DNA from: an uncultured virus (IMG/VR IMGVR_UViG_3300010049_000003)
Taxonomy: Duplodnaviria > Heunggongvirae > Uroviricota > Caudoviricetes
Direction: 5' to 3' (one strand)
Virus record (IMG/VR): IMGVR_UViG_3300010049_000003
Length of the DNA: 64,000 nucleotides
Shown: piece after piece, positions 24,101 through 41,804 of the stretch
Numbering within the stretch: position 1 is the first letter of the stretch
Layout of the letters: each line of letters starts with the position of its first letter
The notes under the pieces: generated by a model
Databases searched by the model: none
What the model saw: only the letters and a program-made list of their open reading frames with translations
What the model was told of the DNA's origin: nothing
Made by a program: the position numbers and the translations under genes

Positions 24101-24824
24101 TCCTGGTGTGTTAAAAGAGTTAACCAAAGCAGCCGGTCCAGCAGGGCCACAGGCCCTAAAATCTACCGCGCTGCAATTTACAGGGGCTGACGGGCTGGTC
24201 AGATTAGTTCATGACCACATTATGAATAATGAGCTAGATCACTTATTTCCAAGACATGACCCTACGTTCGATTTTGCCAAAGACTTGGCTCCAGGTGTCG
24301 ATAAGTATAAGCATGTAGTAAAGAATCAAGCTGGTTTAACACGTCAGGCCATGGAGGACTTATACGCGCATTATGTAGATACTCAGGAATTACCACCACG
24401 CCTTGCAGAATTGTCCCACGCGTTGGCAGAAGGCGCGGGCGCGAGCATGGAGGAACATCAACGTATCAATGAGTTACTACATGGCATGGCCACACAGGAT
24501 TGGAAAGGTACCGACAATAGTTCCGGCGATCTGTTTAATTTGAATATGCAGCATTTCCATAAAATGTTCGGGGACGAAGCCACTAGAGATGCTGATAACA
24601 AAGTATTGGAAATGTATGGTAGCTTACATGATATTGGCTATCCTCATGAAGTGCAGGACCAAGTACACCCACACACCTTAGAACATTTAAAGACTCAAGA
24701 AGGGGCACGGGTAAAAAATATGGTTGAAACCTATGGGCCCGGGGCTGAGAACATGGGCTATGAGTCACCTGAAGCTCCTGGACACTGGTTCCCCGAGGAT
24801 TTGGAAGAGCCAGAAGGATGGTAA
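21192..24824 (+). CDS. Polyvalent internal virion protein with two tandem R-S-E ADP-ribosyltransferase domains and an internal Tat-like signal
   Basis: YRG..QSTG..QNE and HRG..QSTS..EDE triads; seven xxxGGxV motifs; TRRAFLK plus hydrophobic stretch. Confidence 0.75.
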   Translation: MPSVSKKQANLMSAIAHGWNPPMKHAPSLAVAKEFHEADKRVGKWEHAEGGKVQNLQRLLDWMASTHPYNRAPREGMFGKNSRFYMGLLRSHDWNPRMSSGDRDLMTYMAETTPQDMLHSHASDMEKLVDKYSLQLQYPLVTYRGLSLPERPQEGTVVQALHPQSTGLDDELAEQFKEFSKNYSNPYATFLKIINPEQSRLLPNPLSGQNELLLPPGQKGALTLRDVATIKDLVNETEEYVAHANRPSYADGGKVNNLKRVWDWMMSKYGKDIHHGMFGENTYGYMAELRKRGWNPPMTPGHFDTMMTLAASPSDFWNRSSAHNDMQELFDRYGLNLDSPLTTHRGMVMTDKTLPETGGVIVSSKPQSTSYNPYKAAEFANPGGLTSQSINMAKRLGQTPMPTMTEILNYPKTRLLPNPLSGEDELILPGGAEGALSVRGVHEGLIDRTPDEFVGYPDTEPFEGMLIDAAHRPLYQEGGQVQAPPQQGQPQQPPQPSQPPIAAQGMEQQDITPLERMSPEIQRQMSNYLQQNVSQRPAMMARMRAQKALLSQQVPTMTLPQMQEGGSVEIPEFKPPKVGSLVHAHNAPHVPASPITRLAQAAQASGVEQALQEGGSVGPLALGGDDPSDWFAQREELLGPGNTITASSFDRPRGTQFTDPRNADEYTLNLIGNAADRAMSAVGIDDNHRQLSRLIATMAGQAGGVDEQGHLRMPSFSSSKTPLPGAVSSVLGWPAEIGQIASAMSRVPLSPIESADPASVSLHGLSSLLGGLYDKYGDSMLGWSKAAADKAGQAEIAARRAMGLTPAKGIKEKLPESLGYMLAQIPVGEAGAAKSLLSDALTSGLEFLGPTIRPSTRNYLKGTAFGALLPGGGDDLSPGTGKWSTPGATGSFAGGGQVRNVPAAMNVLESMLRKSLARDQQISTGASQTSRGILPGPAAMAGGGKVDMTRRAFLKGLGATAAAGAVGVKAPGVLKELTKAAGPAGPQALKSTALQFTGADGLVRLVHDHIMNNELDHLFPRHDPTFDFAKDLAPGVDKYKHVVKNQAGLTRQAMEDLYAHYVDTQELPPRLAELSHALAEGAGASMEEHQRINELLHGMATQDWKGTDNSSGDLFNLNMQHFHKMFGDEATRDADNKVLEMYGSLHDIGYPHEVQDQVHPHTLEHLKTQEGARVKNMVETYGPGAENMGYESPEAPGHWFPEDLEEPEGW

Positions 24825-24830
24825 AGCATT

Positions 24831-27215
24831 ATGGGTTCCAAAGCTGAAGAAGTTGCACGGGCCCTGCGGGCCCTGTCTGCTGAGACGGCGCAGCACTCCG
24901 GCTTTCCGATGCATGGGTTTTTTTCGACGCTCGATGAACTGTTACAGCGTTCTCCCAACAAGATGCCCGGGACCCAATGGGCAAATTATCTATCTCCCGG
25001 TAAAACTATTACGCGTGGTGGGCGGCAGTTTGGACTTACAGCCGATGAGCTACGGCATGCTGGCTTAGATTTTAATTTAAAATTAAGGGCCCCAGGATCT
25101 TTTACCCGGGAAGAAATGTTAGATGCCTTGCGTAGTACGCGTAGTAGCGGGCGACAACAATTTACACCTTTGTTCTATTCTTCATTACGTTCACCGTTAC
25201 GTGGAGCATTGGATGAATTGAATGTCTCTAAAGACCTTCCGCCACAGATTAGAGAAATAAGACCAACGTCTTATGGGCGGTTTAGAACGCCTGGTACAAA
25301 ATGGGCGGAAGATGTAGTAACTAGTAGTCCCGAACCTCAAATTACAAGATTATCTCAAATGCCCCGTTTCTCTACTCATTTCATGAGAAGTGGATACGAT
25401 TCTGCTTTACATGAACCCAATTATGACTATAGAGGTATTTCCTGGACTCGACAAAATGTATTGCCAAAATTGGGTAGATTGGTGGATGAAATCCAATCAG
25501 ATGTACACCAACAGAATCCCCAGCGGACTGATGTTCCTTTTAGTGGTAATGCATGGATAAATCACGAATTACGTAAAGCTATGATGATGGCAGCCCAACG
25601 CGGTGAAAGTAGTATATCATTAGTTGATCCGTCTATTGTTGGTGGCCGATATCAAGATAACCCAGGGCTACAAAAATTCTATGAAGGGCCAGTTACTAAT
25701 GCTTGGAACGATTTAGCACGACGTTATGGGCTCGATTCCAGTTATGTTAACAAAACCATCCCAACTGATTTAGACTACGTACGTCGTCTTAAGCAATCAC
25801 GATCTAATTTAGATATGTTACAAGGACGTTCCTATTCCGGAGAAGATGGTACTCGCCGCATGCTTGCTGATTCCAGCTATTTTAAGGAGGCATTATCACG
25901 CCTGGATCCCGATATCTTGTCCCCTGCACTAAGACAAGCCAAGATAGAACATGACGCGGCAGAGGGCGCGTTACGTACTACTCGAGTTCCTTATGATGAA
26001 GCAAGACGATCGGGGCAAGATGATGCGTCTTTGGTGACCACTTGGGAAAATACACGTGACGAGTATCGGAATACCATGCGGAGTATGATGCAACATCTTC
26101 CAGAAGTAACTAGTAAATTAGATCAATTGATACGAAATCAACAAAGAACTGTGATAGGTCATGACTTTAATCGTATCCTATTGCCCGAGGATGCCCGGGA
26201 AAGTATCATGCAATCAGGTGTCCCTCTTTACCGGCTCGGTGGTCTCGCCCAGAAGTACGCCAGCGGTGGGCAGGTACAGACTGGCCCGATCCAGGACATG
26301 CTCAAGACCGTAAAGGCAGCGATGGCCCACCTGGAAGTCGGAGATAAGAATAAGGCAGCGGCGGTGCTGGCAGCCGACCCGCATGCACTCAAGCACCCCC
26401 AGCTTGCCGCAATCCACAAGCGGATGACTACACCAAAGCCTGCGCCCCCTGCTCCTTTCCAGATACCGTCACCACAGCAACCCATCGCTGGTGCCCCTCC
26501 GGTACAGCCAACAGCACTACAGGGAATGGCCCGGGGCGGGAGAATGAAGACCAATGTCCGAAAGATGCTGGTTAAACAGGGGCAAACTACCTCCGGGCCA
26601 ATCGAAGTGCCTATTCATGGGCTCACCCAGAACCGTGTCCTGAATGAAGACAATGTTAATGGGATTCAGAAAGCAATCACCGACGGCAAGGAAATGAACC
26701 CAGTTGTCATCGATGTAGCTGGTAACATCCTGGATGGTAATCATAGGGTAGAGGCTGCTCGTCGTCTGGGTATCAGCCATGTGGACGCACATGTCATCCA
26801 CGACAAAGGCCAGTCCCCCGGTTTCCAAGGTGGCGGGTCAGTCAAAGGTATTACTGACGCATTTGCGATGGCCCGGGAGCCCCAGCAAACTACTTCCCCT
26901 TCTATCCTGTCGAGCCTGACACAGGGCGTACAGCAACTGAACCAAAAGAATCCGATGGGTTCACGGGTGCTGGCCGCTCACGCGCAGGCCCTACTCCGGG
27001 CGCATCTGAACGCGGCCCGGAGCCTGCACCGACTCACGGGGAGCACGGCGGGATACCAGTCCCTGGGCACTACGCCGGCCCAGGACCCCATGGCGCAATA
27101 CGGTGCGATGAACCAGTTGGGGGCAGGTAGCCAGCCACCTACCCCCGGAGCTTCCCCTCTTGCGATGGCCCCTCTGGCTGTGCAGGCGGCACGTCAGGCC
27201 ACCGGACAGCAGTAG
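24831..27215 (+). CDS. Polyvalent internal virion protein with EIQSD-motif domain and ParB/Srx-like domain
   Basis: 'GFFS.L', 'LVDEIQSD', 'PVVID..GNILDGNHRVEAARRLG'; four xxxGG motifs. Confidence 0.7.
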   Translation: MGSKAEEVARALRALSAETAQHSGFPMHGFFSTLDELLQRSPNKMPGTQWANYLSPGKTITRGGRQFGLTADELRHAGLDFNLKLRAPGSFTREEMLDALRSTRSSGRQQFTPLFYSSLRSPLRGALDELNVSKDLPPQIREIRPTSYGRFRTPGTKWAEDVVTSSPEPQITRLSQMPRFSTHFMRSGYDSALHEPNYDYRGISWTRQNVLPKLGRLVDEIQSDVHQQNPQRTDVPFSGNAWINHELRKAMMMAAQRGESSISLVDPSIVGGRYQDNPGLQKFYEGPVTNAWNDLARRYGLDSSYVNKTIPTDLDYVRRLKQSRSNLDMLQGRSYSGEDGTRRMLADSSYFKEALSRLDPDILSPALRQAKIEHDAAEGALRTTRVPYDEARRSGQDDASLVTTWENTRDEYRNTMRSMMQHLPEVTSKLDQLIRNQQRTVIGHDFNRILLPEDARESIMQSGVPLYRLGGLAQKYASGGQVQTGPIQDMLKTVKAAMAHLEVGDKNKAAAVLAADPHALKHPQLAAIHKRMTTPKPAPPAPFQIPSPQQPIAGAPPVQPTALQGMARGGRMKTNVRKMLVKQGQTTSGPIEVPIHGLTQNRVLNEDNVNGIQKAITDGKEMNPVVIDVAGNILDGNHRVEAARRLGISHVDAHVIHDKGQSPGFQGGGSVKGITDAFAMAREPQQTTSPSILSSLTQGVQQLNQKNPMGSRVLAAHAQALLRAHLNAARSLHRLTGSTAGYQSLGTTPAQDPMAQYGAMNQLGAGSQPPTPGASPLAMAPLAVQAARQATGQQ

Positions 27216-27789
27216 GAAGTAAGCCACCGATAACCGTTTCTACCCAATCCCTAGCGAGGCTCCAGTCAGCAGTCGATGGGTATTTCATTTTAATAAGGTG
27301 CAAGATATCCTCTATCTTTCTCATTAGGCCATTAACCACATCCTCACTGCAGCCGCGTGCCCCCGCCTTGTATATTCCATACTGTTGCATCCATAGGATC
27401 GCTTCTACATTATCTGCGATCTTGAGCAGATACCAACTCGGCGTGCCTACCATCCCTTTTATTGCCCTATAGACTGTAGGGAAACCTTCTTGCGTCACTA
27501 TCTCCTCGAGCCTGCGAGAGACCTCGGGCCCGATCTTGTTTAATGTATCCTTCATGGTGGACGGGATGTCGCCCGTGACAATCTCCGGCAGATCATGGAT
27601 CAGAGCAAGCTGTGAAAGCGATTCCCTCTCCAGGCTCCCATTTGTGAAAAGGGTGTCATAAAGGTTCATAGTCAGGGCCCATACCCGGAAGCTGTGCTCG
27701 GCCACCGATTGGTCGCGCGACACCTCCACAATCTGCCACCGGCGGATTGTGTGTAATTGTAGCATGTCGTACAGCTCATTCCTAGTCAC
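27139..27789 (-). CDS. datZ: HD-domain dATP triphosphohydrolase
   Basis: 'IRRW..V...QSVAEHS', 'HDLPEIVTGDIPS', 'KIAD..EA'; adjacent to purZ and mazZ. Confidence 0.85.
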   Translation of the reverse strand: MTRNELYDMLQLHTIRRWQIVEVSRDQSVAEHSFRVWALTMNLYDTLFTNGSLERESLSQLALIHDLPEIVTGDIPSTMKDTLNKIGPEVSRRLEEIVTQEGFPTVYRAIKGMVGTPSWYLLKIADNVEAILWMQQYGIYKAGARGCSEDVVNGLMRKIEDILHLIKMKYPSTADWSLARDWVETVIGGLLPTAVRWPDVPPAQPEGPSQEGKLRG

Positions 27790-28141
27790 AGTGCCCTCCT
27801 TCCGACTCTACGTGCAATTCTATGCCATGATGGTAATGGCCGGTGGCCTCGTCTTTTTGCCACATGCGTCGCTCATTTATCCGCATCTTGTCCCGGATGG
27901 CCTGTGACAGGTCCACATTCCAGCATATTGCAAGATCCATCAATAGTATGAAACAGTCTGCTAGTTCACCGGCTATGCTGTCCACCCCCCGCTCCTTGCG
28001 GTGCTGCAGAAGCTCCGGTATCTCCTCCATGACCAGCTTAGAGAGCGCCCGCTCCGGGACGCGTCCCGGAAATGTACGGTCTGCCCAGTAGTGGATGTAT
28101 AGGGAAGCTTCGGTTATCGAATCCCAGTTAGGACTGGCCAT
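27782..28141 (-). CDS. mazZ: MazG-like (d)GTP pyrophosphohydrolase
   Basis: 'WADRTFP.R.....KL..EEIPE', 'GELAD..IL..D', 'KM.IN..R.W'; between purZ and datZ. Confidence 0.82.
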   Translation of the reverse strand: MASPNWDSITEASLYIHYWADRTFPGRVPERALSKLVMEEIPELLQHRKERGVDSIAGELADCFILLMDLAICWNVDLSQAIRDKMRINERRMWQKDEATGHYHHGIELHVESEGGHCD

Positions 28142-29252
28142 TGAAAGGCTCCTCTGCCAGGTATGGACGGGTCAGGGGCCACAGCGAATCATCAAAGTCA
28201 CGCTGCCACACATCTCTCACAGTGGGGCCGAATGAGAACAGGCGCACCGGGACGTTAATGTGAGTCCTGATAGAGCCTGCCAGTTGTTTAACTGGTTGTG
28301 GGAGGTTAGCCCGGCCCTGTCCGTTTAGGCATAGGTTGTCATCCATCGACAGCAGATAATCACAGAACGTTAATGCTATGCACGAGGGCCGCATGATGCG
28401 TGCTGCCTCCCACACCTGCTCGAGGCTGAAGTCAAAGATGCGGCGCGGCAACTTGGTTACCGTGGTAAGCTCCGGCTCCCGGTGCAGGTCCTCCTGCCAG
28501 TTCAGTTCTCGCTGGAATGGATGGGTATCCCCCGACCAGCCGATGCGCTCACCCTTGTCGTCGTACCGGTTCGCTACCCTGATGGGGTAAGTACGGCAAA
28601 CCCCGATGGTGCGGATGTCATCGCTCCACGGTATTCTACAATCTGCCAGTAGTTGTGCGGTGCTTACGTCGCGCGATGTGCAGTACGGGTAGAACGGCGT
28701 GTGGATGCCCAGCCCATAACCCTGTGCCCCCTCCACTAGCAACTTATTGCTATTGTCGACAGCACTGTCATATGCACTACCCGAGACGGTTATTAAATCG
28801 TGCCGCAACAATACCTGCCCGATCGTGGCCTGCGGCCCCCGCCGCATCTTGCGGATGGCCGCGATCATCGATCCTTTCATAGTGCTACCGATTCGCACCA
28901 GGTCTTTCTCCTCGTCTGCGTCGGTCGTCTGTAGCAATGCGGCGTTGCTATGAATTATCACATGCTTGCCGCGTACATGGTCAGCGGCATACGCCAGTTC
29001 TGTCTGGAGCTTGTGTAGGTCAACCACTGCCCCCGGGCCGATTAAAATAGTCTTCACTGATGGGGACAGCGCGCCGATCGGCAGCATGGAGTGCACGTAT
29101 TTCTTATCATTCATGTGCGCCGTGTGGCCTGCATTCGGATGCCACGCCGCGACCACCGCATCTGGTTGCCAGCCCAGGGCCGTTACCAGGGCAATACTGC
29201 CCTTAGCCTCTGAGCCCCACTGCATGCCCTGTATCGCTACTATTTCTGTCAT
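28128..29252 (-). CDS. purZ: N6-succino-2-amino-2'-deoxyadenylate synthase (PurA homologue)
   Basis: 'GMQWGSEAKG' (Ser replaces the catalytic Asp of PurA GDEGKG), NAGHT, GST, EGAQG, 'YPYCTSR', 'RTYPIRV', 'TTVTKLPRR'. Confidence 0.92.
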   Translation of the reverse strand: MTEIVAIQGMQWGSEAKGSIALVTALGWQPDAVVAAWHPNAGHTAHMNDKKYVHSMLPIGALSPSVKTILIGPGAVVDLHKLQTELAYAADHVRGKHVIIHSNAALLQTTDADEEKDLVRIGSTMKGSMIAAIRKMRRGPQATIGQVLLRHDLITVSGSAYDSAVDNSNKLLVEGAQGYGLGIHTPFYPYCTSRDVSTAQLLADCRIPWSDDIRTIGVCRTYPIRVANRYDDKGERIGWSGDTHPFQRELNWQEDLHREPELTTVTKLPRRIFDFSLEQVWEAARIMRPSCIALTFCDYLLSMDDNLCLNGQGRANLPQPVKQLAGSIRTHINVPVRLFSFGPTVRDVWQRDFDDSLWPLTRPYLAEEPFNGQS

Positions 29253-31099
29253 AATGATGCCTCATACCAGTTAATGCCGAGCCCATACTCTGTAAGAATC
29301 GGGATTCGGTATTCTAGGGGATATTTTCCTATGCCAGTGAAATCTTCTAGCAGCTCCTTTATGTTACTGTCAAGTATTTTCTGTCGCCCAAATTGCATTG
29401 ATAGATCAAATTCGTCATGGACCAGTAACGCCAGCCGTGCGCCTCTATCCTTCACCAGTTTATGTAACTCAATAGTCTTTACCTTCATGGATTCGGCGGC
29501 CTGGGACTGGTATAAAATTCCTGCGGCCTTATAGGCGTTATCGTTATGGAACCTGAGCCGACGTCCCAACTGAGTTTTAATATAGCCCCGTGATCGAGCG
29601 ACGCTTGCAACGCTTTCCTTAATTCGGTTAGCTCCTGGGATGTTATCATGATACTTAGCGAAAAGCGACTGTGCTTCGGGTCCTGCGACATAAAATCCCT
29701 TTTCATTCCGGGTATACGGTAGCCCCATTTCCTTAGCCATGCGCCCCGCCGACATACCAAAGATTAGACCGAGATTCATCTGCTTTGCGTTCGCGCCCCC
29801 CGTTTTTTGGTCTCGATCACGCGGTAGTCCTGTAATAGTTGCTGTAATCCCATGGAAATCAGCCGCCGGGTTTTTAACGTATACCTCATTGATTCGGGGG
29901 TCATTAAGGTAATGCGCAAACATCCGAAAGTCCTTTTGAGACCAGTCAAAACATCCCCATTCACAATCAGGGTCAGGGATGAAACATGCACGCACGATCG
30001 CAGCCATTGCCTTGTTACGTTTGTTAATTTGCTGCAGGGCGGGATCGGTGACACTGAAACGGCCCGTGTAAGTCCCATCCCCCTCCTCGGAACGAGTCTG
30101 GTTGAAGTTGGCATGTACGTACCCTTTATGGTGCATTTCACATATATACTTCTGCAGGAACACGTCGCGGGCCTTAATGAAACCCCGGATCTGTGCAATC
30201 AGTGCTGCTGCCGGATTCTTGCACTGGTATAGGTTAGCGTTGCGTAGCTGCCCCGATTTGCCAGATTCCGTGGGTTCTAACAGCACACCACATTTGGTAT
30301 ACCAGCGTCCGTCGCTAGCCTTATGCACTCCTAGCAACTCTTTTACCTGTGGCTGGCTGTTGACGTTAATAGGGTGACCCGCTAACTTATCTAGTGATTG
30401 CTGGGATTCATGAACTGCCTGCGTCATCTGCGGGATTGCTTCTTCTGCCCTGGCCACGTCCACTCGCACACCCCCGCGTTCCATGTCCACGATGACTTCT
30501 AATAATTCTCTTTCCATTGTGGCTACTAGATTAAGCCCCTGGAGGCGTATCTCTGTCTCCTGCGCCTCCCAGTTACGCAACGCGAGTTCAGCATCCTTCT
30601 TAGCATATGCTTCGACGACATGGAAGGGTGCACGATGGAGGTTAGTTGCCTGTGCCTCTTTAGTAGGTTTGCCGTCGTATAAAGTAGCGAGATCAGCCCA
30701 CGGATCGGCTTTATGCTCCCCGAACCTACGCTGGGATACCGCGTCCAGCGAATAATCATATTCGTCCTCGTGTAGCAGGCATTCTCTTATCATGCTACAG
30801 TCCGCAGCCCCCGCCGCCAGTGGGATGTTTGATTCCCGCAGCATGTGCATGTCGTACTTGAGGTACCAGCCAGTCACCCTGCCTAGTTTCGGGATAACAT
30901 CCAGGCACCAGCGGCGGGTGCTTTCGTCACGCACGTCGCCATACCAGGAACAGAGCTTGTTCTGGTTGTCGCGCCATGCGAGGGATATACCAAATACGCG
31001 ATCCTTGCGTACCCAGTCCAGGCCCGTGCACTCCGTGTCCAATGCAACTATGGGCCGAGACAACAGGATGCTAGCATTAGGAGTGGATATCGTAGCCAT
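29249..31099 (-). CDS. dpoZ: Family A DNA polymerase with 3'-5' exonuclease, DpoZ-like
   Basis: Exo I 'ALDTE', 'TGRFS..P.LQQI', motif A 'DWSQKDFR', motif B 'AKQMNLGLIFG', motif C 'VHDE'; stop overlaps purZ start. Confidence 0.8.
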   Translation of the reverse strand: MATISTPNASILLSRPIVALDTECTGLDWVRKDRVFGISLAWRDNQNKLCSWYGDVRDESTRRWCLDVIPKLGRVTGWYLKYDMHMLRESNIPLAAGAADCSMIRECLLHEDEYDYSLDAVSQRRFGEHKADPWADLATLYDGKPTKEAQATNLHRAPFHVVEAYAKKDAELALRNWEAQETEIRLQGLNLVATMERELLEVIVDMERGGVRVDVARAEEAIPQMTQAVHESQQSLDKLAGHPINVNSQPQVKELLGVHKASDGRWYTKCGVLLEPTESGKSGQLRNANLYQCKNPAAALIAQIRGFIKARDVFLQKYICEMHHKGYVHANFNQTRSEEGDGTYTGRFSVTDPALQQINKRNKAMAAIVRACFIPDPDCEWGCFDWSQKDFRMFAHYLNDPRINEVYVKNPAADFHGITATITGLPRDRDQKTGGANAKQMNLGLIFGMSAGRMAKEMGLPYTRNEKGFYVAGPEAQSLFAKYHDNIPGANRIKESVASVARSRGYIKTQLGRRLRFHNDNAYKAAGILYQSQAAESMKVKTIELHKLVKDRGARLALLVHDEFDLSMQFGRQKILDSNIKELLEDFTGIGKYPLEYRIPILTEYGLGINWYEASL

Positions 31100-32507
31100 T
31101 ATCCGTCCCCTCGTAAGTAACGAGTTCTTCCCGTGCCCGGGTCACACCCACATAGAAAAGACGGTGTTGGTTATCGGGACTATCTAATGACTGCAGAGAA
31201 GCGGCTGATGATTGGCCTAGCGACAGGTGAACAATCTCACCCTCCCTACCTTTTGCCCCGTGGATCGTAGATAACCTAGTTTCCACTGGCTGGGACAGGT
31301 CCACATTATACAGATAGTCCTGGTGCGCGGGCCTTACCCGTAACATTGTGAGATCTCTCTTTACTAGCCGTGCCATTACCGCAAGGTGACCTACTGAGTC
31401 CCAGATGGCGGCTCCGTGTTTTGACAGGGCGGATTTGATGAATGCTCGACGCTCAGCCCAATCTTCTGCGTTTCCCGGGGGCGGAGATATAGCCAGCTTA
31501 AGTACGCGGCCTGCTTTAATGTCAAGAGGTCCAGGTAATCCGGACACCACCGTATAAGGAACGAGGTCAGAGATGAGGTCCCGTTCAATTTCATCTCGTA
31601 TGAAACGGTCACTATACAGAATGAGATTGTCCTTACCAGCTTTAAGCTGCTTGGTAATGTAACCCGCATCCGCGAAGTTCGAACAGCGCCCTTCAGCTTC
31701 TCTTGGCTTGTATACGACCCGGACGCGGTTTTTGATCCTGTCAATGACTCTGGACGCAACCGCATGTACAACACGTGGAACTCTATAGCTCTGCTCCAGC
31801 ACCTGATAAGCAGTCTTGAACTCGTCGTGAAACGCATGGATGCCCAGGGGATCCGCCCCCATGTAAGCGTAAATTGATTGGTCTTCATCACCTGCCACCA
31901 GTACCCGGCAATCGGGGTTTAAAGTCATGACATGCCGTATTACTTTCCAATGAAGCGGCGTGAGGTCCTGTGCCTCATCCACAGCGAGTAAGCGAAGATT
32001 GGTGCCACGCTTACAGTTAAGATAGCGATCCAACATATCAGAGAAATCAATGTACCCATGCTCTTTCTTCCACATGTCGTATGACCTGCAGAACGATTGG
32101 AAATGGGGCCAGGTACCGCCAAACGTGCGCAGCTTCTCCACCTCCTGCGATATGGGGACCATTTTCGATCGGGCGCGAGACATGATTTGTACATATTGGG
32201 CACCCGTGCCCCCATCCTCCAGGTCCAGCCCAAAGTCTTCCATAAAAGGTTGAAGGTTATAATTGTCCACCACATAGCCTTTACCCATCTGCCGATGGCA
32301 GAAGCTATGCATAGTTGATGTTATCACTCGCTGGTTGAACCCGGGGCCATCGACCCAGCGCGAACGGGCTTCCTCAGCCGCAGCATTGGTATGGCTGATG
32401 AAAAGAATGTTATGATCCGGATTCTCATTATGATGAGCACGGACCTTGTTCGCTAGCTCCGACGTCTTCCCAGTGCCGGGGGGCCCTATAATTACTTCAT
32501 GCCTCAT
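31077..32507 (-). CDS. UvrD/Rep-like superfamily 1 helicase
   Basis: GPPGTGKT, VDEAQD, GDEDQSIY, QSYR, STIHGAKGRE, YVGVTRA. Confidence 0.92.
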   Translation of the reverse strand: MRHEVIIGPPGTGKTSELANKVRAHHNENPDHNILFISHTNAAAEEARSRWVDGPGFNQRVITSTMHSFCHRQMGKGYVVDNYNLQPFMEDFGLDLEDGGTGAQYVQIMSRARSKMVPISQEVEKLRTFGGTWPHFQSFCRSYDMWKKEHGYIDFSDMLDRYLNCKRGTNLRLLAVDEAQDLTPLHWKVIRHVMTLNPDCRVLVAGDEDQSIYAYMGADPLGIHAFHDEFKTAYQVLEQSYRVPRVVHAVASRVIDRIKNRVRVVYKPREAEGRCSNFADAGYITKQLKAGKDNLILYSDRFIRDEIERDLISDLVPYTVVSGLPGPLDIKAGRVLKLAISPPPGNAEDWAERRAFIKSALSKHGAAIWDSVGHLAVMARLVKRDLTMLRVRPAHQDYLYNVDLSQPVETRLSTIHGAKGREGEIVHLSLGQSSAASLQSLDSPDNQHRLFYVGVTRAREELVTYEGTDNGYDIHS

Positions 32508-32510
32508 ACG

Positions 32511-32717
32511 CTATCCTTTCAACAACTCATGAATGCCTATTGCGATCAACGCAAGCATGGCGACGAACGCCAGGGTACTCAGGAGTACAACAATGAGCAC
32601 GAGTATAAAGTTCGCGGCATCTCGCAACCGCTCACTCAAAGGAGGTCCAGTCCCCTCACCGCTCATAAGAACATGTCTAGAATTGATCAGATGGGGGCAC
32701 CGGGGACCGGACCACAT
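32511..32717 (-). CDS. Small membrane protein
   Basis: One long hydrophobic segment; fills the gap in the - strand operon. Confidence 0.5.
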   Translation of the reverse strand: MWSGPRCPHLINSRHVLMSGEGTGPPLSERLRDAANFILVLIVVLLSTLAFVAMLALIAIGIHELLKG

Positions 32718-32723
32718 TAGAAC

Positions 32724-33512
32724 TTAATACTCAGTTGATGCCGGATTTGTGGCCGGCTCGTCGTACTTATCATCAACGACGGTCCGTATCGTCCCGCTTT
32801 TCATGCCCATGTAGATGGCTTCGGCTTCTTTATAGGCTTTGATGGGGGCCCACTTCCCGGGCAGTACCGCGAAATTTTTGTACTTCTGTCCCTGGTTATT
32901 GGTCTCATCTACCACCATTAGGATGTAGGAGCGAGAAAACCGGTCACCGCCCCCAAGCCGGATCAATGAGTTCCAGTTACGTGAAACCTTCCCTTTGGAA
33001 GTGGTTACGCCCATGGAAATCACTGCCTGCTCGGTGTCCCCGTTTTCCTTCAGAACCAGCACATAATGCTGATGCGTATCCTTAGCCTCATACTCGTCAG
33101 GCTTTTCCTGCTCAGCAATGCGCTTCTCGGCGTCTTCCAGCATGGGAAAAGTGCCACGAAAGCCACCACCTTTGCTCCGGTCACGCCATACCAGCCAGTC
33201 CTTTTTGAATAGAACGGGAACTACCCGTACCTTTGGCCCGTACACCTGCCGAGTCACCGAATTATAGATGTCTCCCACCTCACAGCCTTCAATGTAGGCT
33301 GAGTGGGTCTTATCCACTGCCGGTGACAATGCCTGTGCGATCTCGAGCCTCGGGATTACCAGGTCGTCAACACCTACCTGCTCTGAGCCACGCGACGGAC
33401 CATGCCGCATATAATCCGGCATTACTTCCTGCGTGCTGGGCTCTGCAGGCAACTGATCCACTGGCTTGGTTGCGGTCACGCTCTTGCTCGCCACACTCGG
33501 TTTGCTAGCCAT
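32724..33512 (-). CDS. Putative single-stranded DNA-binding protein
   Basis: Likely start MASKP at 33512; 'DDLVIPRL.I.Q.LSP', 'W..R..GGGF', acidic/aromatic tail; replication context. Confidence 0.55.
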   Translation of the reverse strand: MASKPSVASKSVTATKPVDQLPAEPSTQEVMPDYMRHGPSRGSEQVGVDDLVIPRLEIAQALSPAVDKTHSAYIEGCEVGDIYNSVTRQVYGPKVRVVPVLFKKDWLVWRDRSKGGGFRGTFPMLEDAEKRIAEQEKPDEYEAKDTHQHYVLVLKENGDTEQAVISMGVTTSKGKVSRNWNSLIRLGGGDRFSRSYILMVVDETNNQGQKYKNFAVLPGKWAPIKAYKEAEAIYMGMKSGTIRTVVDDKYDEPATNPASTEY

Positions 33513-33756
33513 TTGATACCTCTGTCTGACGCTTCTGATAATCACCACACCAGTCAGTCGGGGAAACGTCGGGCCACGCTGACGTGGAAGCCCACTGCAG
33601 ACCAGAGGGCTTGGGTAAAGCGATAGCGAATACACGGGGCGCACACTTGCGGCAAATCATGGAGCCACCAGTAACTGTCTGCAAGATGCCCATCCATTGG
33701 CAAGTGCGACAGGCACGCCCCTGTGGGAACTCCTGGGGTATAACGCTCTTTTCCAT
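33505..33756 (-). CDS. Small Cys-rich protein (CxxC...C..P...WP.V...WCG)
   Basis: Motif pattern; coupled to neighbours. Confidence 0.65.
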   Translation of the reverse strand: MEKSVIPQEFPQGRACRTCQWMGILQTVTGGSMICRKCAPRVFAIALPKPSGLQWASTSAWPDVSPTDWCGDYQKRQTEVSNG

Positions 33757-34268
33757 CAGGTCTTCACCCCGCTGCGTGTAATAACGGCCCGGACCAGCGG
33801 CGTCACCGTTATCGATTCTGGCAGGTCTTTTACTTCCTTGATGCGCTCACGGACGAATGCCGCCAGGGTCTGGTTATTCACCGTGGGTTTGATCATGTCT
33901 TCGAAGTCGTTAGCCGTCAGCCATTTTCGCAAGCCATCGGGGTCGTCCACTTTTACAGATACATCGTTCTGGAGGTTCACCCGTCCGATGCCCGCAAGAG
34001 TAACTGATGGCATCCCTGCTTCGTCCATCAGGGTCGGGATGGTAGTGAAGCGCAGGGTGTCATACGCCTTTTCGCACGGCGTCTTTACATTGGCCTGGAG
34101 CAGCTCCTTGAACCGGAATAAGGCATCCATCATCTTGACAGCCACTTGTACTGACTCCAATTTGCGGCCCCCTTCATCGTTAAGTAATGATGCCCGTTCC
34201 GCCACATAAGTTGCTAATGTCTCGATTGCCGTCATAGCAGTCTCAGGTTTCACATGGAAGTCATACAT
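33756..34268 (-). CDS. Phage replication-region hypothetical protein
   Basis: Likely start MYDF; 'IP.LM.E.G..S.TL', 'TVN.QTL.AFVRE'. Confidence 0.7.
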   Translation of the reverse strand: MYDFHVKPETAMTAIETLATYVAERASLLNDEGGRKLESVQVAVKMMDALFRFKELLQANVKTPCEKAYDTLRFTTIPTLMDEAGMPSVTLAGIGRVNLQNDVSVKVDDPDGLRKWLTANDFEDMIKPTVNNQTLAAFVRERIKEVKDLPESITVTPLVRAVITRSGVKT

Positions 34269-34269
34269 A

Positions 34270-34566
34270 TTAGAATCCTTTATCTGCAAACACGCCATCG
34301 ATATCCGGCCCCCGCGTCTGGTACCTCCAGAAGTTTGGTGGGCCCGGGTTCTGGGCCGACATGCCAACGGCCATCAGGGCCGAGATTATCACCCACTTAC
34401 CGTTTTTGTCCAGTATCGAGTCCTCAATTACGTAGCCTGCCTGCCCTGGTGGATGCCAGCACGCCTCAACAATCTCTCCCATAGGCGGTAACTGGGCAGC
34501 AGTAATGCGCCAGCGCCTATCCGCCCTATGGGCCCGCTCCTGTTCTTCCTTTATATCCTTACTCAT
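34270..34566 (-). CDS. Hypothetical protein
   Basis: Co-oriented and coupled in the operon. Confidence 0.55.
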   Translation of the reverse strand: MSKDIKEEQERAHRADRRWRITAAQLPPMGEIVEACWHPPGQAGYVIEDSILDKNGKWVIISALMAVGMSAQNPGPPNFWRYQTRGPDIDGVFADKGF

Positions 34567-34982
34567 ACGCGCTTTCTGACTCCTAGTCCGATTAGGCCAA
34601 GGATGAATAGCACCAGGCTCGAGGGCTCAGGTATGCTGGCACGCTTAGCGTGGTCATCTTTAATATCCCAATCCATTTCCGCAGGAAAGCTACCGCCACC
34701 TGCACCCGTGCTCGCGTCGGTCGGCGCGTCGGGCTCAGGCGGCACGAGCCCGCAACCGTCCATGCCGAAGCATGCTACCGGGGGATTGAGCGCACCAGAC
34801 TCGATGAGCATTTGTACATACTTTTCTACGAGATCGGCATCACCGAATGCCTCCAGCCATATAGAAATGCTCTGCTTATCCTTCGGCTGTTCTGCGTCCT
34901 TTGCCTGCTGCGCAGAGGCCACGTTAGCCGTGGCACAAAGGCAGAGAGTAGCGAGCCGTGTATACATAACGTATCTCCTCAT
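34563..34982 (-). CDS. PEP-CTERM sorting-domain protein
   Basis: N-terminal signal peptide (..ANVASA); C-terminal IPEPSSL + transmembrane helix + RKR. Confidence 0.85.
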   Translation of the reverse strand: MRRYVMYTRLATLCLCATANVASAQQAKDAEQPKDKQSISIWLEAFGDADLVEKYVQMLIESGALNPPVACFGMDGCGLVPPEPDAPTDASTGAGGGSFPAEMDWDIKDDHAKRASIPEPSSLVLFILGLIGLGVRKRV

Positions 34983-35344
34983 ATTTCAAGCTCATAGCAA
35001 TGGTACTTCTGAGCACGTGCATCCCAGCCCAGCAACTTGTGAGTCGGACCGAGTTGTGCCAACAACATCCCGACTAGCAGCATTTTGGTGGGGGCCCCGG
35101 TCGGGATCACGTAATCCCTGCCGGGGATGTAATCACGAAGCTCGCCACGAAGCTGCTTGATCGCATTCGTATTCCACTCGTTGCGATCGTTCGGCGCGGA
35201 AGGCGCAAGCCGAACAGACCGCATAAAATACAGGGTACCGAATGCGGCGGCAGGGCTATAATCGAAGGGTTGTTGGTCTACGACGTAGACCATCGGTTCG
35301 TTATCCGCCATGGCTGCTCCGATATCGTTCGAATGCGTATTCAA
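34979..35344 (-). CDS. Hypothetical protein
   Basis: Compact alpha/beta-looking ORF coupled in the operon. Confidence 0.65.
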   Translation of the reverse strand: MNTHSNDIGAAMADNEPMVYVVDQQPFDYSPAAAFGTLYFMRSVRLAPSAPNDRNEWNTNAIKQLRGELRDYIPGRDYVIPTGAPTKMLLVGMLLAQLGPTHKLLGWDARAQKYHCYELEI

Positions 35345-35626
35345 TCACGCCTCCTCTTTGGGCGTCAAGAGGTCGCCCGCGAGCCTTGCATATCCCTCTA
35401 TGTCATGCCATGAGTCCCTGTTGTTTGAGTCCCCGCACACGAGCCGCGCCATCTTTAAACAGATCATCTCGAGTGCTTCATATTTATAGCACTCCATATC
35501 CGTTTTCGCATAGGCACGAATAATGGTTCTGAGCCGTTGCGCGCAGTCGGACATTCTCAGAAAATCTCCATACTTGGACCCACGATCAATTAGAGTCAGG
35601 CTTACTGGCACAGGATAGAGACTCAT
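35345..35626 (-). CDS. DUF6378-like small phage protein
   Basis: 'RG..YGDF', 'M...K.AR...G.....DSW.DI.GYA'. Confidence 0.75.
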   Translation of the reverse strand: MSLYPVPVSLTLIDRGSKYGDFLRMSDCAQRLRTIIRAYAKTDMECYKYEALEMICLKMARLVCGDSNNRDSWHDIEGYARLAGDLLTPKEEA

Positions 35627-37332
35627 ATAAGCTCCTTGATGGATTCTACACCGGCTTCATCCAGGGCCTTCGCTATGAACTTGTCCATGTCCAGCTTAGC
35701 CTGTAGTGCCGCTTTGAACAAATTGTCGACGGATTTCTCCATCCGACAATCGACATATAGAACTTCGTTGTGCTGCCCAATGCGGTGCAGCCTGTCCTCA
35801 CTCTGTATTCTATCTTCGAGGGAAAAAGTGTTTGAGTAATAGAATGAGTAGTGAGCGGCGGTGAGCGTTATCCCAATGCCTCCCGTCTGTTGGTTCCCGA
35901 CGATGTATCGTAACCCATGCTCCTGAAATTGTTTAATGACATTCGCCCGGTGTTCTACAGAAGTGCTGCCAATCAGCCTGCCGACCGGACGCGACAGGAT
36001 ATCAGTTATGGCCCGTTCCATCTGCTCCACTTCCCACAGGTGCTTGGCCCAGAACACACACTTTGCATCCCCGATCTCCTCAATGAACTCCAACATTGCC
36101 TGGATTTTCGGGTTATCCTTCAGCGGCATGGCCCAGATGATTTTACCCTCCATCTTCCGCTCCCGGCCCGTTACCGGATCGATCACCTTTCGAGGGTCCT
36201 CTTTCAAGTAACCACCCGCAATCTGCGCCAACTTCTCCACCCGATTCAGGATGTTAGCAACTGAAATTCCTTCGGTGTAGCCACCTTTAGTCCTGGTGTA
36301 CATCAGGCGCTGTTGCGGTAGCATTGACACCCAGCGTTCAGAGTACAGCTTGGCAGGAATCCCCTCCGGCTTGTCACAGCGGTAGCTATAAGGCTCGATC
36401 AGGCCCATAAGCTCATCCACGTGATCGTAACCCACCACTTGCTTCATCTTATATCCGCCCATTCTGCAGTAGCGAGAACGGAATGCGTAGAAATCGCCCA
36501 GGCCGATTATGTTAGGATCCAGGAATTCAAACTGCGCATATAGGTCGACCAGTGTATTCACTGCTGGCGTGCCGCTGGCGATCAAACGCATCTTCGCCAT
36601 CTGCCCAAGCTCCATAGCTCGCTCAGTCCTGATAGCTTTGTGATTTTTTATCCTGCTCGACTCATCCACCAGCAACCCAAACTTTCTACCCGCCAACAAC
36701 TCGGTAAGCTTATGAAACATGCCCCCCTGTGACAGAGACTCGATGCCCACTATCAGCCACGTGAAACGGGGCCGGTCGATGCGCAGTCCTTTCTGGATCG
36801 GAGGTGTGAGTGCCTGCCACAGGTGTGGGCAGTATTTAGCTATCTGGCCGTCCTCGCCCGCCCATACGGTTGTAACTGTCAGGGGGCATAACACCACTGC
36901 CAAATCGATACAGTTCTCAGTGAACGCCTGGGAAAATATGCTGATAGCCACGTATGACTTTCCAGCCCCGGGCCGCATGAACAAGGCTCCACAGTTCTCT
37001 CTGAAGATCTTGTGAATGGCCTTTCGCTGATCAGGGAACGGCTCGACCGGGAATTCGTAGTTAGAAGGAAACTGACGGCCCAGATGTGTAGGGTACGCCG
37101 TCTGTGTCATCAGGCTGCGAATTGTGTATGACGTGCTCAGGTCAAACTTACCAACTTTATTCGCCTCCATTATTTGCAACATATTTACCCGCGTCATGGG
37201 GATGACAAATACTCCCCGGGCCGGCATCCAGCGTCGGGAAGGCAGCATCATCATAGTATTACCTTCTTCCCAATTTCCGGCCTTGATAACAAGCCGATTT
37301 TTAGTTTCTTCATACTCTATAGTAGCCATCAA
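35623..37332 (-). CDS. SNF2-family helicase
   Basis: 'MRPGAGKS', 'VDESS.IKN', 'SGTP', 'GGIGITLTAA', 'QSEDRLHRIGQ'. Confidence 0.92.
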   Translation of the reverse strand: MMATIEYEETKNRLVIKAGNWEEGNTMMMLPSRRWMPARGVFVIPMTRVNMLQIMEANKVGKFDLSTSYTIRSLMTQTAYPTHLGRQFPSNYEFPVEPFPDQRKAIHKIFRENCGALFMRPGAGKSYVAISIFSQAFTENCIDLAVVLCPLTVTTVWAGEDGQIAKYCPHLWQALTPPIQKGLRIDRPRFTWLIVGIESLSQGGMFHKLTELLAGRKFGLLVDESSRIKNHKAIRTERAMELGQMAKMRLIASGTPAVNTLVDLYAQFEFLDPNIIGLGDFYAFRSRYCRMGGYKMKQVVGYDHVDELMGLIEPYSYRCDKPEGIPAKLYSERWVSMLPQQRLMYTRTKGGYTEGISVANILNRVEKLAQIAGGYLKEDPRKVIDPVTGRERKMEGKIIWAMPLKDNPKIQAMLEFIEEIGDAKCVFWAKHLWEVEQMERAITDILSRPVGRLIGSTSVEHRANVIKQFQEHGLRYIVGNQQTGGIGITLTAAHYSFYYSNTFSLEDRIQSEDRLHRIGQHNEVLYVDCRMEKSVDNLFKAALQAKLDMDKFIAKALDEAGVESIKELI

Positions 37333-38909
37333 TACTCCAGTTTGGTTTGGACATCTGGTACCGGTTCATCCGCCATGTGCGCTTCAGGAATGCACCACAC
37401 GTTTGATACGGTCGTATTCACGACCCGTAGCTTGTTGCGTTTAAGACTTTTATCTAAGATTTTACCTAAGATCGTGTGTATTTGATAATCCGGCACAGTG
37501 AGCTGCTTCCTTCTTCGTAAATGTTCGATGAAGTCAGTGGCCCGAAAAGCATAAAACCATTCCCGTTCCCCTGTAAGACTCGTAATGCAGATGAATGTCG
37601 GTGTACCCCGTTGTAGCGCCTGTCTTCTTATATCCTCCGCCAAATTTTTATCAGGTATTACTCGCTTACAAAAATCATGCACTCGATCAAGATACATGTC
37701 GTCCATCGTCGTGGATTGCACTACCTCCATATTATTATGAGCCAGGATATCTTTTAAATATTGGTCCCACTCGTCATTTTTCATACGCGGGGACAGGAAG
37801 TTTAGACGCTCGGCTACCGCCTGCCGGTACATATTATACTCAAATAATTGCGGTGTGGTGAGTTCAATTATTTTTTCCTTGATCGTAAGCCGCCATAGCA
37901 CTGGCGTACCCATAATTTTTTCTACTTTATCAATTACCGGTATTTCATTGGCACGCTCGTCGGTCGGTGTTACACCATATGTCCTAGTTTTACATAGTTC
38001 GCGATTGCATAGCGACCGGCACGGTTCCTCACGGCATTTATACTGATATTGCCTACGGTGAATTGACCCCGCTATTTGCCGCACTTCCCTCGTTTCCAGG
38101 GGGGTGACTAGTGCCATTTTGTTAAACATATCCAGTCGATGCCGCCAGTCGTCAGGAAAGGCCCGTTGTAAAAATACTCCACCTTGGAACACAGCGGTGT
38201 TTCTACCTCCTTGTTCCACTGGTGACTCTAACATCTTCTGCAGGCACGGCGGGCCCACATCGAAATCTCCCACAGCCTGCTTCTCAAATTGCTTCAATAG
38301 GCAGCGTTTGCCTTCAGCCAATTCAATGAAATAGTCGAGTGTTACTATTTTACCACCATCCACGCAGTAACGCTCAGAATTCGCTGTGTCGTAGTATGGC
38401 AAGTTGATCCAGCTACCGAGGGGCCGGTCGCCGTCTCTTTGGTCGAGCGTAGACTGCTTTGGGAAGACTTCAGACCCGGGACAGCCCAGGAGAACCTCCC
38501 AGCGTGCCAGCATCACCCGCACGTCACCCGCTCGCTGCGGCTCCTTGAAGAATACATAACAATGTGCGCCACCGGACTTAGATCGGCAGACTATAAGGGG
38601 TAACTCATTTCTTCGGACCTTCTCTTCGATTTCAAAGATGTCCACCTTTTCCTTGCCCCGAACGTGATCTTCTCCTTTTACATCAATATCGATTGCCGCG
38701 AACCAACAGGTGCAATCGTCTAAGATTGGCACCAGCCCCAGGCCGATCGTCCCTTCTAGATGCTCAATAAAGTGATCGATTTTATATGGACTTTTAATAG
38801 TTTGAGGCTTCTTTGTCCTAGCGTTATACTGCCCAAAGCATCGGGTATTACCTTGAAATAATGCCATGAATCTTTTTACTAATTCCTGATCGAGTTCAAT
38901 TGTTTCCAT
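37329..38909 (-). CDS. Primase (AEP-like with PriCT-type domain)
   Basis: 'AIDID', 'RSKSGGAH', 'E.FPKQ', 'INLPY', 'PPCL...G.RN', Cys cluster. Confidence 0.8.
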   Translation of the reverse strand: METIELDQELVKRFMALFQGNTRCFGQYNARTKKPQTIKSPYKIDHFIEHLEGTIGLGLVPILDDCTCWFAAIDIDVKGEDHVRGKEKVDIFEIEEKVRRNELPLIVCRSKSGGAHCYVFFKEPQRAGDVRVMLARWEVLLGCPGSEVFPKQSTLDQRDGDRPLGSWINLPYYDTANSERYCVDGGKIVTLDYFIELAEGKRCLLKQFEKQAVGDFDVGPPCLQKMLESPVEQGGRNTAVFQGGVFLQRAFPDDWRHRLDMFNKMALVTPLETREVRQIAGSIHRRQYQYKCREEPCRSLCNRELCKTRTYGVTPTDERANEIPVIDKVEKIMGTPVLWRLTIKEKIIELTTPQLFEYNMYRQAVAERLNFLSPRMKNDEWDQYLKDILAHNNMEVVQSTTMDDMYLDRVHDFCKRVIPDKNLAEDIRRQALQRGTPTFICITSLTGEREWFYAFRATDFIEHLRRRKQLTVPDYQIHTILGKILDKSLKRNKLRVVNTTVSNVWCIPEAHMADEPVPDVQTKLEY

Positions 38910-39296: not shown

Positions 39297-39773
39297 TTAG
39301 GCGGCGGCTCGTGTCCCCTTGCGCATCCGGTTTCCGAGCGCCATTCTCTGCATGCCCACGTTGAGGTGCCTGTACTTGGCGTACAACTCCTTCTCCTCGA
39401 TCTTCAGCGCCTTGGCCGCGATCGTGTACACTTCCTCCAGGCTCTTGCCCTGCAGGCGCTCAGCAACGGCGTCGCCGTTATTGTAAGACGTGCCTCCCGC
39501 AGCCGTCTTGACCTTAATGTACTTGGTCAAGTCCACAGCCTTACCGCCGATGGTGCGAACACCCGTGGCTTCAGACACCTTTTTAGCCTTCTTGCTCTTC
39601 CGCTTGCCATTCCCATTGTCAGCCATTTTCGTCTCCTTTGTTGGTAATTCCCCGACTATCTCGGCATTGGCAGCCTTTATGGTGCTCTGGTTCCCCGCAG
39701 CATCGACAAAGACTATCTTGCCGCGAACCCGGGCCAAAACCTTGCTGGCATCAATTCTGATCTTTTCAGCCAT
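39297..39773 (-). CDS. Basic protein with Y.HLN.G.Q.M.L.N domain (paralogue 1)
   Basis: 'NGD.VA..L.G..L', 'YRHLNVGMQRMALGNRMR'. Confidence 0.75.
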   Translation of the reverse strand: MAEKIRIDASKVLARVRGKIVFVDAAGNQSTIKAANAEIVGELPTKETKMADNGNGKRKSKKAKKVSEATGVRTIGGKAVDLTKYIKVKTAAGGTSYNNGDAVAERLQGKSLEEVYTIAAKALKIEEKELYAKYRHLNVGMQRMALGNRMRKGTRAAA

Positions 39774-39783
39774 GAATATCCCC

Positions 39784-40179
39784 CTATTTATATCGTGTGG
39801 CATTACGCCGCTGTTCCCAGAACCATAGCTTCCAGTTTACTTCAGTTAAGTTGTAGAGAATCTGGAACGGTGTATCGTCCAGGCCGAGATAGCACTGGAC
39901 ATTCCGCTCGTTTTTACGCAAACGCATGACATAGACATTTCCAGCCTCGATGTCTCGCTGGCGTATGAATTCGCGCTGTGATACGTCTATTTTAGTGGCA
40001 CCGACCTTTAACTCTACCCAGCCTAGGATTTCGGACCCCTGCCAGACGAGTAGATCAGTTGGCCCGGGAGTTTCGGTCTCCCGTATGTGCATAGCGTTGA
40101 TTTGTTGATTATTGAGTACCCCGATCAGGTATCCAGTAAACCAGGTCTCATCTGCATTTCGCGAAGGTATCGGAATCAT
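39784..40179 (-). CDS. PD-(D/E)xK nuclease (VRR-NUC/resolvase-like)
   Basis: 'RETETPGPTDL...WVELK......Q..F'. Confidence 0.7.
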   Translation of the reverse strand: MIPIPSRNADETWFTGYLIGVLNNQQINAMHIRETETPGPTDLLVWQGSEILGWVELKVGATKIDVSQREFIRQRDIEAGNVYVMRLRKNERNVQCYLGLDDTPFQILYNLTEVNWKLWFWEQRRNATRYK

Positions 40180-40258: not shown

Positions 40259-41234
40259 CTAACCCAATTCGTAAACCACGAAGTCGCTACGGGACAGCAA
40301 CTGTTCCATCTCTGCCCGCACTTCCTCCTCATTGGCAGCTATCATCTGTGTCATGAAGAACTCGTCCTCGTCGTTGCGGTGCCGTACCACAAAGTGCCGC
40401 AACCTCGGAGGCTCTAATTGGTCGAGCCCCGACGGGCTGTGGACAACCCTCACTCGCTTGCTGCACAGGATTCGAGTCATAGGCCGAATTAAAACACATC
40501 TCGATTTGCCTCGTCAAGTCCTCTTCCCGGGCGGGTTGATCGACTCCTCGAAGACCCGGATCTGCTGCATCTTTGCTGCCAGATGCGGATGTGTACGGTG
40601 TACATTAGCAAAAAACGTGTTCCGCTCCTGTCGGGTATAAAAGGGGCCGATTCCCTGATCCGTCAGGTCGGTGCACAGATAGACCCGCCACAGTGTCCGT
40701 CCTGTCTCGTGCTGGCCCTTCTGCGACGCGAGACAGCCGTCACAGATTGGGTAGATCACGTTGGTATGCGGCTCGGCCTGGAACCAGCCGTTGCAGGCCA
40801 GACACTGCACCGTCGGCTTCTGCGGTTGACGATTATTTATCATCGATGCCCTCCCACCAGCAGCAATTTGGCCGCTCACAAATCTGCATCGCCCGCGCCG
40901 GGTGGGTATCAAATATGTCGCGGTGTAATAACAAGTGAACGGGCCTGAAGGTCATTTGCCTTGTTGTTAACAGCGCCCTGCGCGATCGTGGATTATATAC
41001 CACCATATGCTGCACATTGGCATGGAACAGCGCCTTACTCCACTTCTGGTGCTGTTTCACTATATCCCCGGCGAAAGAGATTGTGAAATATGTATGCTTT
41101 TTCAAATGAACACTATCCATTATCTGAGCGGTCGCATTTTTACTTAACCGTATGACACGTATGCCGTCTGGTAATGGCGTGTGCTGAGTTGTAAGCGCCA
41201 CGTACAGATCCTCATCGCTTGGTTGTTCAGACAT
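40259..41234 (-). other. Three small early hypothetical CDS (40259-40480, 40514-~40843 with CxxC pairs, 40833-41234)
   Basis: Co-oriented, tightly packed ORFs. Confidence 0.5.
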
Positions 41235-41760: not shown

Positions 41761-41778
41761 GCTTGATCCTTTATTGAT

Positions 41779-41804
41779 GGGGGCGGCTCGCACGAGCCGC
41801 CCCC
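41779..41804 (-). terminator. Perfect intergenic inverted repeat
   Basis: gggggcggctcg-ca-cgagccgccccc; no clear U-tract, so could be a processing or stability element. Confidence 0.45.

Follow-up and report, generated by a model that had tools for sequence, protein, structure and literature searches.

Introduction

In phages that build 2-aminoadenine (Z) into their DNA, MazZ provides dGMP, PurZ converts it to 2-amino-deoxyadenylosuccinate (dSMP), host PurB, Gmk and Ndk carry this on to dZTP, DatZ removes dATP, and the polymerase DpoZ prefers dZTP. The question raised by the locus described here is which nucleotide supplies the phosphate for the PurZ step. The locus lies in a stretch of 64,000 nucleotides (nt) from an uncultured virus of the Caudoviricetes (IMG/VR record IMGVR_UViG_3300010049_000003), here referred to as the window, which spans nearly a whole phage contig. 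Positions 27139-31099 are wholly occupied by four minus-strand open reading frames (ORFs), dpoZ-purZ-mazZ1-datZ. The initial annotation had described four overlapping, co-oriented genes with diagnostic motifs and read them as a complete polymerase-purZ-mazZ-datZ pathway; the ORFs and their overlaps were confirmed, nearly all published diagnostic residues are kept, and gene identities and pathway agree with the published Z-cluster (PMC8342488, PMC8599892, PMC12884076). The Z pathway itself is well known and not new. What had been overlooked is the phosphate-donor pocket of PurZ, which is of the guanine type.

Z-phages have been divided into those with PurZ0 and DutZ/DmtZ and those with an ATP-using PurZ and DatZ/MazZ, and the shift to ATP/dATP is viewed as having adapted PurZ to life with a Z genome (PMC12884076; bioRxiv 2025.10.22.683976). 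A cofactor sentence in PMC12884076 orders ATP and GTP contrary to the introduction of that paper, which assigns ATP to PurZ. The window is interpreted here as coming from a phage with a Z genome and a PurZ that probably uses GTP or dGTP; enzyme activities, GTP use and Z content are all deduced from the sequence.

A guanine-type phosphate-donor pocket in PurZ

The adenine-reading residues of PurZ, Asn plus Asn/Gln (N305 and Q308 in phage S-2L), are replaced by T295 and D298 in the window enzyme. In S-2L, adenine N6 is bonded by N305 and Q308, and a 2-amino group would collide with the amide of Q308; the 2'-OH is not read by PurZ (PMC8342488). The N-F-x-N/Q pattern was found in 15/15 cultured PurZ-clade enzymes checked (from about 60 cultured PurZ-clade records among 202 hits), and T/S..D in 5/5 cultured PurZ0 enzymes checked, all five of which also have the GSEAKG loop of the window enzyme. 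PurA rows carry Asp at the 298 column in 16/16 cases, with Thr in 14. The site of D298 is presumably that of Asp333 in Escherichia coli PurA, which agrees with the TKLD alignment, and a change of Asp333 to Asn reportedly shifts that enzyme from GTP to XTP (xanthosine triphosphate) use.

The pocket is common to the window's closest relatives: Asp is present in all of the best-listed 120 of 1,790 homologues (the window's own included), and its partner is Thr in 117, Ser in 2 and Asn in 1. A search of 50%-identity representatives gave 1,122 strong hits; among the best 150, 143 distant relatives cover the pocket and could be scored, a sample skewed to the Asp type by its query. Of these rows, 95 have Asn plus Asn/Gln, 35 have Thr/Ser plus Asp and 13 are mixed or other, Asp occurring in 43. 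In a closer set, both positions are concordant in 304 of 308 rows (duplicates included), and a comparison of two Asp lineages (35 and 4 rows) with 83 Asn rows revealed clean flips only at 295 and 298, with column 136 marginal.

DNA matching the window was found in termite-gut metagenome runs (6 runs, 4 studies; four of these may be where the window came from), and no differing letters were seen in contigs of 4/4 runs compared, which are perhaps not independent of the window. The pocket codons (28356-28370) are covered by contigs from X1, X3, X5 and X6, of which X5 and X6 are possibly a single data set. Since contigs of all four runs agree over these codons, an assembly slip is an unlikely source of the unusual residues.

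Ancestry of PurZ and origin of the Asp pocket

The best family of the enzyme is PurZ (NF038379; 269.9 bits, ahead by 134 bits, yet under the NCBI cut-off of 300), and its best match in the PDB is S-2L PurZ (7odx, E 2e-50). Profile scores are 293-324 bits for PurZ versus 153 bits for PurZ0, and identity is 40% to the enzyme of SH-Ab 15497 and 32% to that of Archimedes. The predicted model (predicted local distance difference test 90.7) has a template-modelling score of 0.81 to PurZ structures, 0.77 to archaeal PurA and 0.74 to PurZ0. Ser14, a mark of the PurZ/PurZ0 group, stands where PurA has Asp13. Positions of the S-2L dGMP pocket and aspartate loop are identical at G22, N49, A50, G130-T132, R146, Q190, Y203-T205, R240, V241, T273-T276 and R280, and two differ (S-2L Y21 to W12 and G25 to A16). 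Because Ser14 and the S-2L dGMP-pocket residues are present, the enzyme is unlikely to use inosine monophosphate.

PurZ trees were computed without the pocket columns; tree groups were named after the trees were seen, and the quick searches were imperfect, as a constrained tree outscored the free one. A mixture-model tree of 46 rows places the window enzyme within the PurZ clade (100/99) and apart from PurZ0 (100/99), with the base unresolved, and another PurZ tree places it in the PurZ clade with support 97. The supported branches of the 46-row tree require at least four changes of pocket state. In approximately unbiased (AU) tests on 69 rows, one clade for all Asn types (p 0.0016) and one for all Asp types (p 0.0024) were both rejected. 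The polymerase tree has two Asp-type groups, of which the SFCDY group is nested beside SH-Ab/PMBT28, and it rejects their union (p 1.5e-10). Since PurZ and polymerase trees both reject one origin, two or more lineages have the Asp pocket independently; for the SFCDY group a genuine reversal seems likely, because the polymerase tree nests it by SH-Ab/PMBT28 and rejects the Asp union. The window lineage may have reverted to the Asp pocket or may have kept an old state. A PurZ tree in which this lineage branches earliest was not rejected (the constrained tree beating the quick free one by 11 log units), and the polymerase tree with the same branching gave p 0.085.

Partner enzymes of the Z-cluster

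The top PDB sequence match of each of the four genes is the corresponding Z-pathway protein. For the polymerase this is the phiVC8 polymerase (7pbk, E 4e-100, versus 1e-36 for Taq). It scores 612 bits on the DpoZ model NF038380 (NCBI cut-off 500) and only 36.5 bits on the other DpoZ model, NF038381. Residues L455, F459 and G548 have been named for phiVC8 DpoZ, no single residue accounts for Z preference, and S583 is not counted as typical of the DpoZ clade (PMC8599892). The three named residues correspond to L443, F447 and G527 in the window polymerase, and S583 to E563. Exonuclease residues D21/E23/D83 and also H561-D562 are retained, and the three insertions relative to Taq are present in the alignments, the third shorter than that of phiVC8. 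In a tree including five polymerases of phages outside the purZ hits listed, the window polymerase joins DpoZ with support 100. By score, residues, insertions and clade it is thus a phiVC8-like DpoZ, with a probable preference for dZTP.

MazZ matches the S-2L enzyme best (7ody, E 6e-9), and E39/E40/E43/E59/D62, K35, I65, D69, K85, N89, R92, W94 and H105 agree with S-2L. The MazZ-1 marks, i.e., the S-2L metal ligands E35/E38/E50/D53, the guanine-linked I56 and D60, and R83, are present; S-2L N20 is F24 in the window, as in most relatives. Residues matching I65 and D69 are tied to guanine specificity, and the S-2L MazZ structure contains dGDP (PMC8342488). Identity is 42% to the MazZ domain of SH-Ab 15497 and 35% to S-2L MazZ, with no match to phiVC8 MazZ-2. 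Given this greater similarity to the SH-Ab 15497 domain than to S-2L MazZ, the enzyme may also cut dATP.

For DatZ, the best PDB match is 6zpa (E 1.5e-10), a thin margin over the HD protein 2cqz (2.2e-10). Residues R17, W18, I20, H32, H65, D66, E69, D74, K80, K123 and D126 agree with S-2L, whose sites H34/H66/D67/D119, E70/D75, R19/K81/K116, W20 and I22 are present; no ligand of metal or phosphate is lost. The W/I pair keeps out ribose and the 2-amino group (PMC8065100).

These partners also accompany the pocket elsewhere. Asp-type loci with 2 kb of downstream sequence have datZ and mazZ-1 in 15 of 18 cases and a dut gene in 0/18, and those with 2.5 kb upstream have a DpoZ-like gene in 14 of 17 (duplicates included in both counts). 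The three loci without Z partners hold cellular genes that are fused to a kinase and fall outside the PurZ clade. Within 6 kb downstream, the virion genes of the window match 6/13 Asp-type loci (5 distinct contigs) and 0/83 Asn-type loci, and because such matches occur at Asp-type and not at Asn-type loci, the Asp clade of the window is, at least partly, one phage lineage.

Cellular PurA-family genes at L102:7335-9029, L104 and L105 have the Ser signature and a T-F-V-D pocket and branch outside PurZ0 and PurZ; the gene inspected more closely is kinase-fused (AAA_18) and adjoins DUF7002 and four integrases. Z-cluster partners are absent. L097 and L099 are PurZ-clade genes in bacterial bins, with GSEGKR replacing GKG, and the 8 kb around L099 contain no Z partners.

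Proposed pathway and alternative explanations

That the cluster encodes a Z pathway is very probable. MazZ-1 would convert dGTP to dGMP, PurZ would couple aspartate to dGMP, giving dSMP, and host PurB, Gmk and Ndk would complete dZTP (for these three, no Pfam match was obtained among the 47 and 23 ORFs scanned, small ORFs being only partly covered). DatZ would destroy dATP and spare dZTP, and DpoZ would favour dZTP; this preference, together with dATP removal, would lead to Z opposite T in virion DNA, which would escape many restriction sites that contain A. The restriction resistance proposed by the initial annotation stands only in part, as 53% of 147 enzymes are resistant or partly so (PMC12944874).

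If the cluster is a Z pathway, a preference of its PurZ for GTP is likely. Since the two residues that read the base match the PurA/PurZ0 state, (d)GTP would be the most likely donor, drawn on in place of the ATP of studied PurZ-clade enzymes, and D298, like its PurA counterpart, would act as hydrogen-bond acceptor for guanine N1 and N2. Because PurZ does not read the 2'-OH, dGTP is as likely a donor as GTP. More speculatively, spent dGDP might feed MazZ and be trimmed to the dGMP substrate in a loop, and a guanine-nucleotide donor might permit Z synthesis only when the G pool is full.

Several observations weigh against (d)GTP use, and most of them fit an ordinary Z-cluster in which PurZ uses ATP/dATP, or ATP and GTP alike, and the T/D pocket is tolerated variation. 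The ATP-type pocket residues F296, Y299, G342 and P343 are retained (the stacking residues F306, P336 and Y309 of S-2L being F296, P343 and Y299), so the pocket reads as a hybrid, and in sequence and fold overall the enzyme is nearest to ATP-using PurZ. Coupling of the two positions is looser among the distant relatives, where five of the mixed or other pockets are N..D. No clear D-type-specific change was found in MazZ, DatZ or DpoZ at published sites, and none that is compensating in MazZ; S-2L MazZ hydrolyses GTP too (PMC8342488), and such activity would compete with a GTP-using PurZ. In DatZ, P79 over the base is missing and T78 stands instead (Pro in 9/16 D-type and 88/106 N-type rows). 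Use of ATP is nevertheless considered unlikely: Asp is invariant among the best-listed homologues, both positions shift together in separate lineages and toward PurA/PurZ0 states, and, on chemical grounds, a carboxylate opposite adenine N1 would be unfavourable.

It is very improbable that the enzyme simply is PurZ0 of the GTP-using actinophage family, with which it has GSEAKG and T/S..D in common; forcing it together with PurZ0 gave a p-AU of 0.07, above 0.05. All three unconstrained PurZ trees, the identities and the profile scores given above place it with PurZ, and the Z-cluster has datZ, mazZ-1 and a phiVC8-type DpoZ with no dutZ beside it, whereas dutZ is found in all 98 PurZ0 genomes and PurZ genomes mostly have datZ (PMC12884076). 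The enzyme may work like PurZ0 from outside the PurZ0 clade. There is just as slight a chance that the cluster yields little or no Z, PurZ taking another substrate or the genes merely adjusting nucleotide pools. PurZ misses a cut-off that 5/5 reference enzymes pass with 325-421 bits. Palindromes gave no sign of Z: GC-only 6-mers are the more depleted (-0.91 versus -0.21 for those containing A/T), but this says nothing about Z because the asymmetry is even stronger in phage RW, the control (-4.13 versus -1.62). A dATPase with the adenine-selective W18/I20, a DpoZ over its cut-off and an intact dGMP pocket would hardly make sense without dZTP, and, in a metagenome survey, 28/29 such genes from restriction-resistant contigs group with PurZ (bioRxiv 2025.10.22.683976).

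A wider reading of (d)GTP use is given about even chances: a change of two residues would have moved donor choice in the PurZ clade from ATP to GTP or back on two or more occasions, and a large uncultured lineage with Riverwalkvirus-like virions would run a DatZ/MazZ/DpoZ Z-genome on a (d)GTP-using PurZ. If this holds, the path from PurA via PurZ0 to PurZ was not one-way, and DatZ-type Z genomes have no need for ATP. PurZ ancestry and partners combined with a guanine-type pocket would break the PurZ0/PurZ pairing of Z-phages, the reason why PurZ moved to ATP would become a two-residue question, and four compactly arranged genes that rely on another cofactor would be at hand for building Z-DNA in laboratory strains. 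If the enzyme uses ATP, the window adds one more Z-phage, with a virion type that is new among the cultured Z-phages compared.

Genome context and additional features

Feature coordinates are listed in Table 1. Neighbouring ORFs of the Z-cluster overlap by 4 nt (pol/purZ), 14 nt (purZ/mazZ) and 8 nt (mazZ/datZ), as read from the sequence, and purine-rich, Shine-Dalgarno-like stretches, judged by eye, precede the starts. The genes purZ, mazZ and datZ are adjacent with mazZ in the middle, as in the Z-cluster arrangement, and the 3' end of datZ overlaps a convergent virion gene by 77 nt. A promoter/terminator scan gave results at or below chance.

Table 1. Features of the Z-cluster and its upstream module (aa, amino acids)
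Feature	Position	Strand	Remarks
DpoZ, family A DNA polymerase, phiVC8-like clade, with 3'-5' exonuclease	29249..31099	-	616 aa; NF038380 above cut-off
PurZ-clade 2-amino-deoxyadenylosuccinate synthetase	28128..29252	-	374 aa; best family NF038379, fold, tree
Ser14 codon of purZ, PurZ/PurZ0 signature replacing the catalytic Asp of PurA	29211..29213	-	
PurZ phosphate-donor base pocket T295-F-C-D298-Y, guanine-type	28356..28370	-	Corresponds to S-2L N305/F306/Q308
MazZ-1, stand-alone MazG-like (d)GTP pyrophosphohydrolase (predicted)	27782..28141	-	119 aa; 7ody match, residues
DatZ, HD-domain dATP triphosphohydrolase (predicted), GTG start	27139..27789	-	216 aa; phrog_7076 E 2e-25
Replication module upstream of the Z-cluster	31077..38909	-	UvrD helicase, Pam3 gp34/33/32-like, DUF6378, SNF2 helicase, primase

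The DUF6378 gene (35345-35626, -), with the PHROG label 'phosphofructokinase', matches a phiVC8 gene downstream of datZ, and genes so labelled are also near the Z-clusters of Bm1 and vB_OspP_OH; it is possibly an accessory nucleotide enzyme. Three paralogous small ORFs (39297-39803, 41227-41814 and 45693-46217, -) match one conserved gene of phiVC8 and SH-Ab 15497.

The chassis with GroES and ejection proteins named by the initial annotation was recovered, with a GroES-like gene at 56208-56669 and SU10 adaptor and ejection-protein matches. Podovirus morphology is supported indirectly; Caulobacter phage RW, whose virion module is alike (see below), was reportedly first described in a paper titled for podoviruses. 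The probable major capsid gene (58899-59819, +; also L206 37431-38345) is 74% identical to RW_GP086c, and the capsid gene of RW is stated as not identified in PMC11053796. Two tRNA genes, tRNA-Ala(CGC) and tRNA-Phe(GAA), lie upstream of the terminase (49790-49952, +). Late proteins of 1210 aa (21192-24824, +) and 794 aa (24831-27215, +) have modules split by a repeated GG-x-V, in 7 and 3 copies, and are presumably polyvalent proteins injected into the bacterial host. The former starts with two modules, 38% identical, whose resemblance to ADP-ribosyltransferases is no more than a lead (PF03496 clusters, Atlas 0.91), and the latter has a weak ParB-like stretch. PEP-CTERM sorting signals at the ends of two phage proteins (34563-34982, -; 48962-49555, +) suggest that the host is Gram-negative and has an exosortase.

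Comparison with known systems

The literature and supplement text searched did not mention PurZ-clade enzymes with an Asp pocket, a search in which the original PurZ0 paper was not covered and alignment figures were unsearchable; T-F-x-D-type enzymes have possibly been noticed before, e.g., counted as PurZ0. The Z pathway as such is common: across four aquatic viromes, some 7.7% of contigs received a Z-type score (bioRxiv 2025.10.22.683976).

S-2L (7ODX, 7ODY, 6ZPA) shares with the window the purZ-mazZ-datZ order, a stand-alone MazZ-1, the dGMP pocket and the catalytic residues of DatZ and MazZ, but has PrimPol instead of DpoZ and an N-F-A-Q pocket with ATP/dATP, at identities of 30-37%. The phiVC8-like phages, SH-Ab 15497 and PMBT28 have the DpoZ clade and signatures of the window (NF038380), and SH-Ab 15497 has the whole replication module in common with it. 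They differ in their N-F-x-N pocket and in an SSB (single-stranded DNA-binding protein) or primase gene between pol and purZ; MazZ, stand-alone in the window, is MazZ-2 in phiVC8 and a fused MazZ-1 in SH-Ab and PMBT28, and neither SH-Ab nor phiVC8 matches the window virion genes. The actinophage PurZ0 enzymes (Archimedes 7VF6; Ghobes, Goodman, Hiyaa, Glenn) are alike in Ser signature, GSEAKG loop and T/S..D pocket, but form a separate clade with DutZ/DmtZ partners and another, Wayne-like DpoZ type; their GTP use was reportedly described by Tong et al. in 2023. The virion module is syntenic with that of Caulobacter phage RW (proposed Riverwalkvirus, 62 kb), with identities of 74% (capsid), 51% (GroES), 46% (terminase) and 43% (the 892-aa gene after the terminase), whereas the Z/replication genes are unmatched in the 50 of 62 kb compared, and the purZ hits listed, a part of 202 records, do not include RW.

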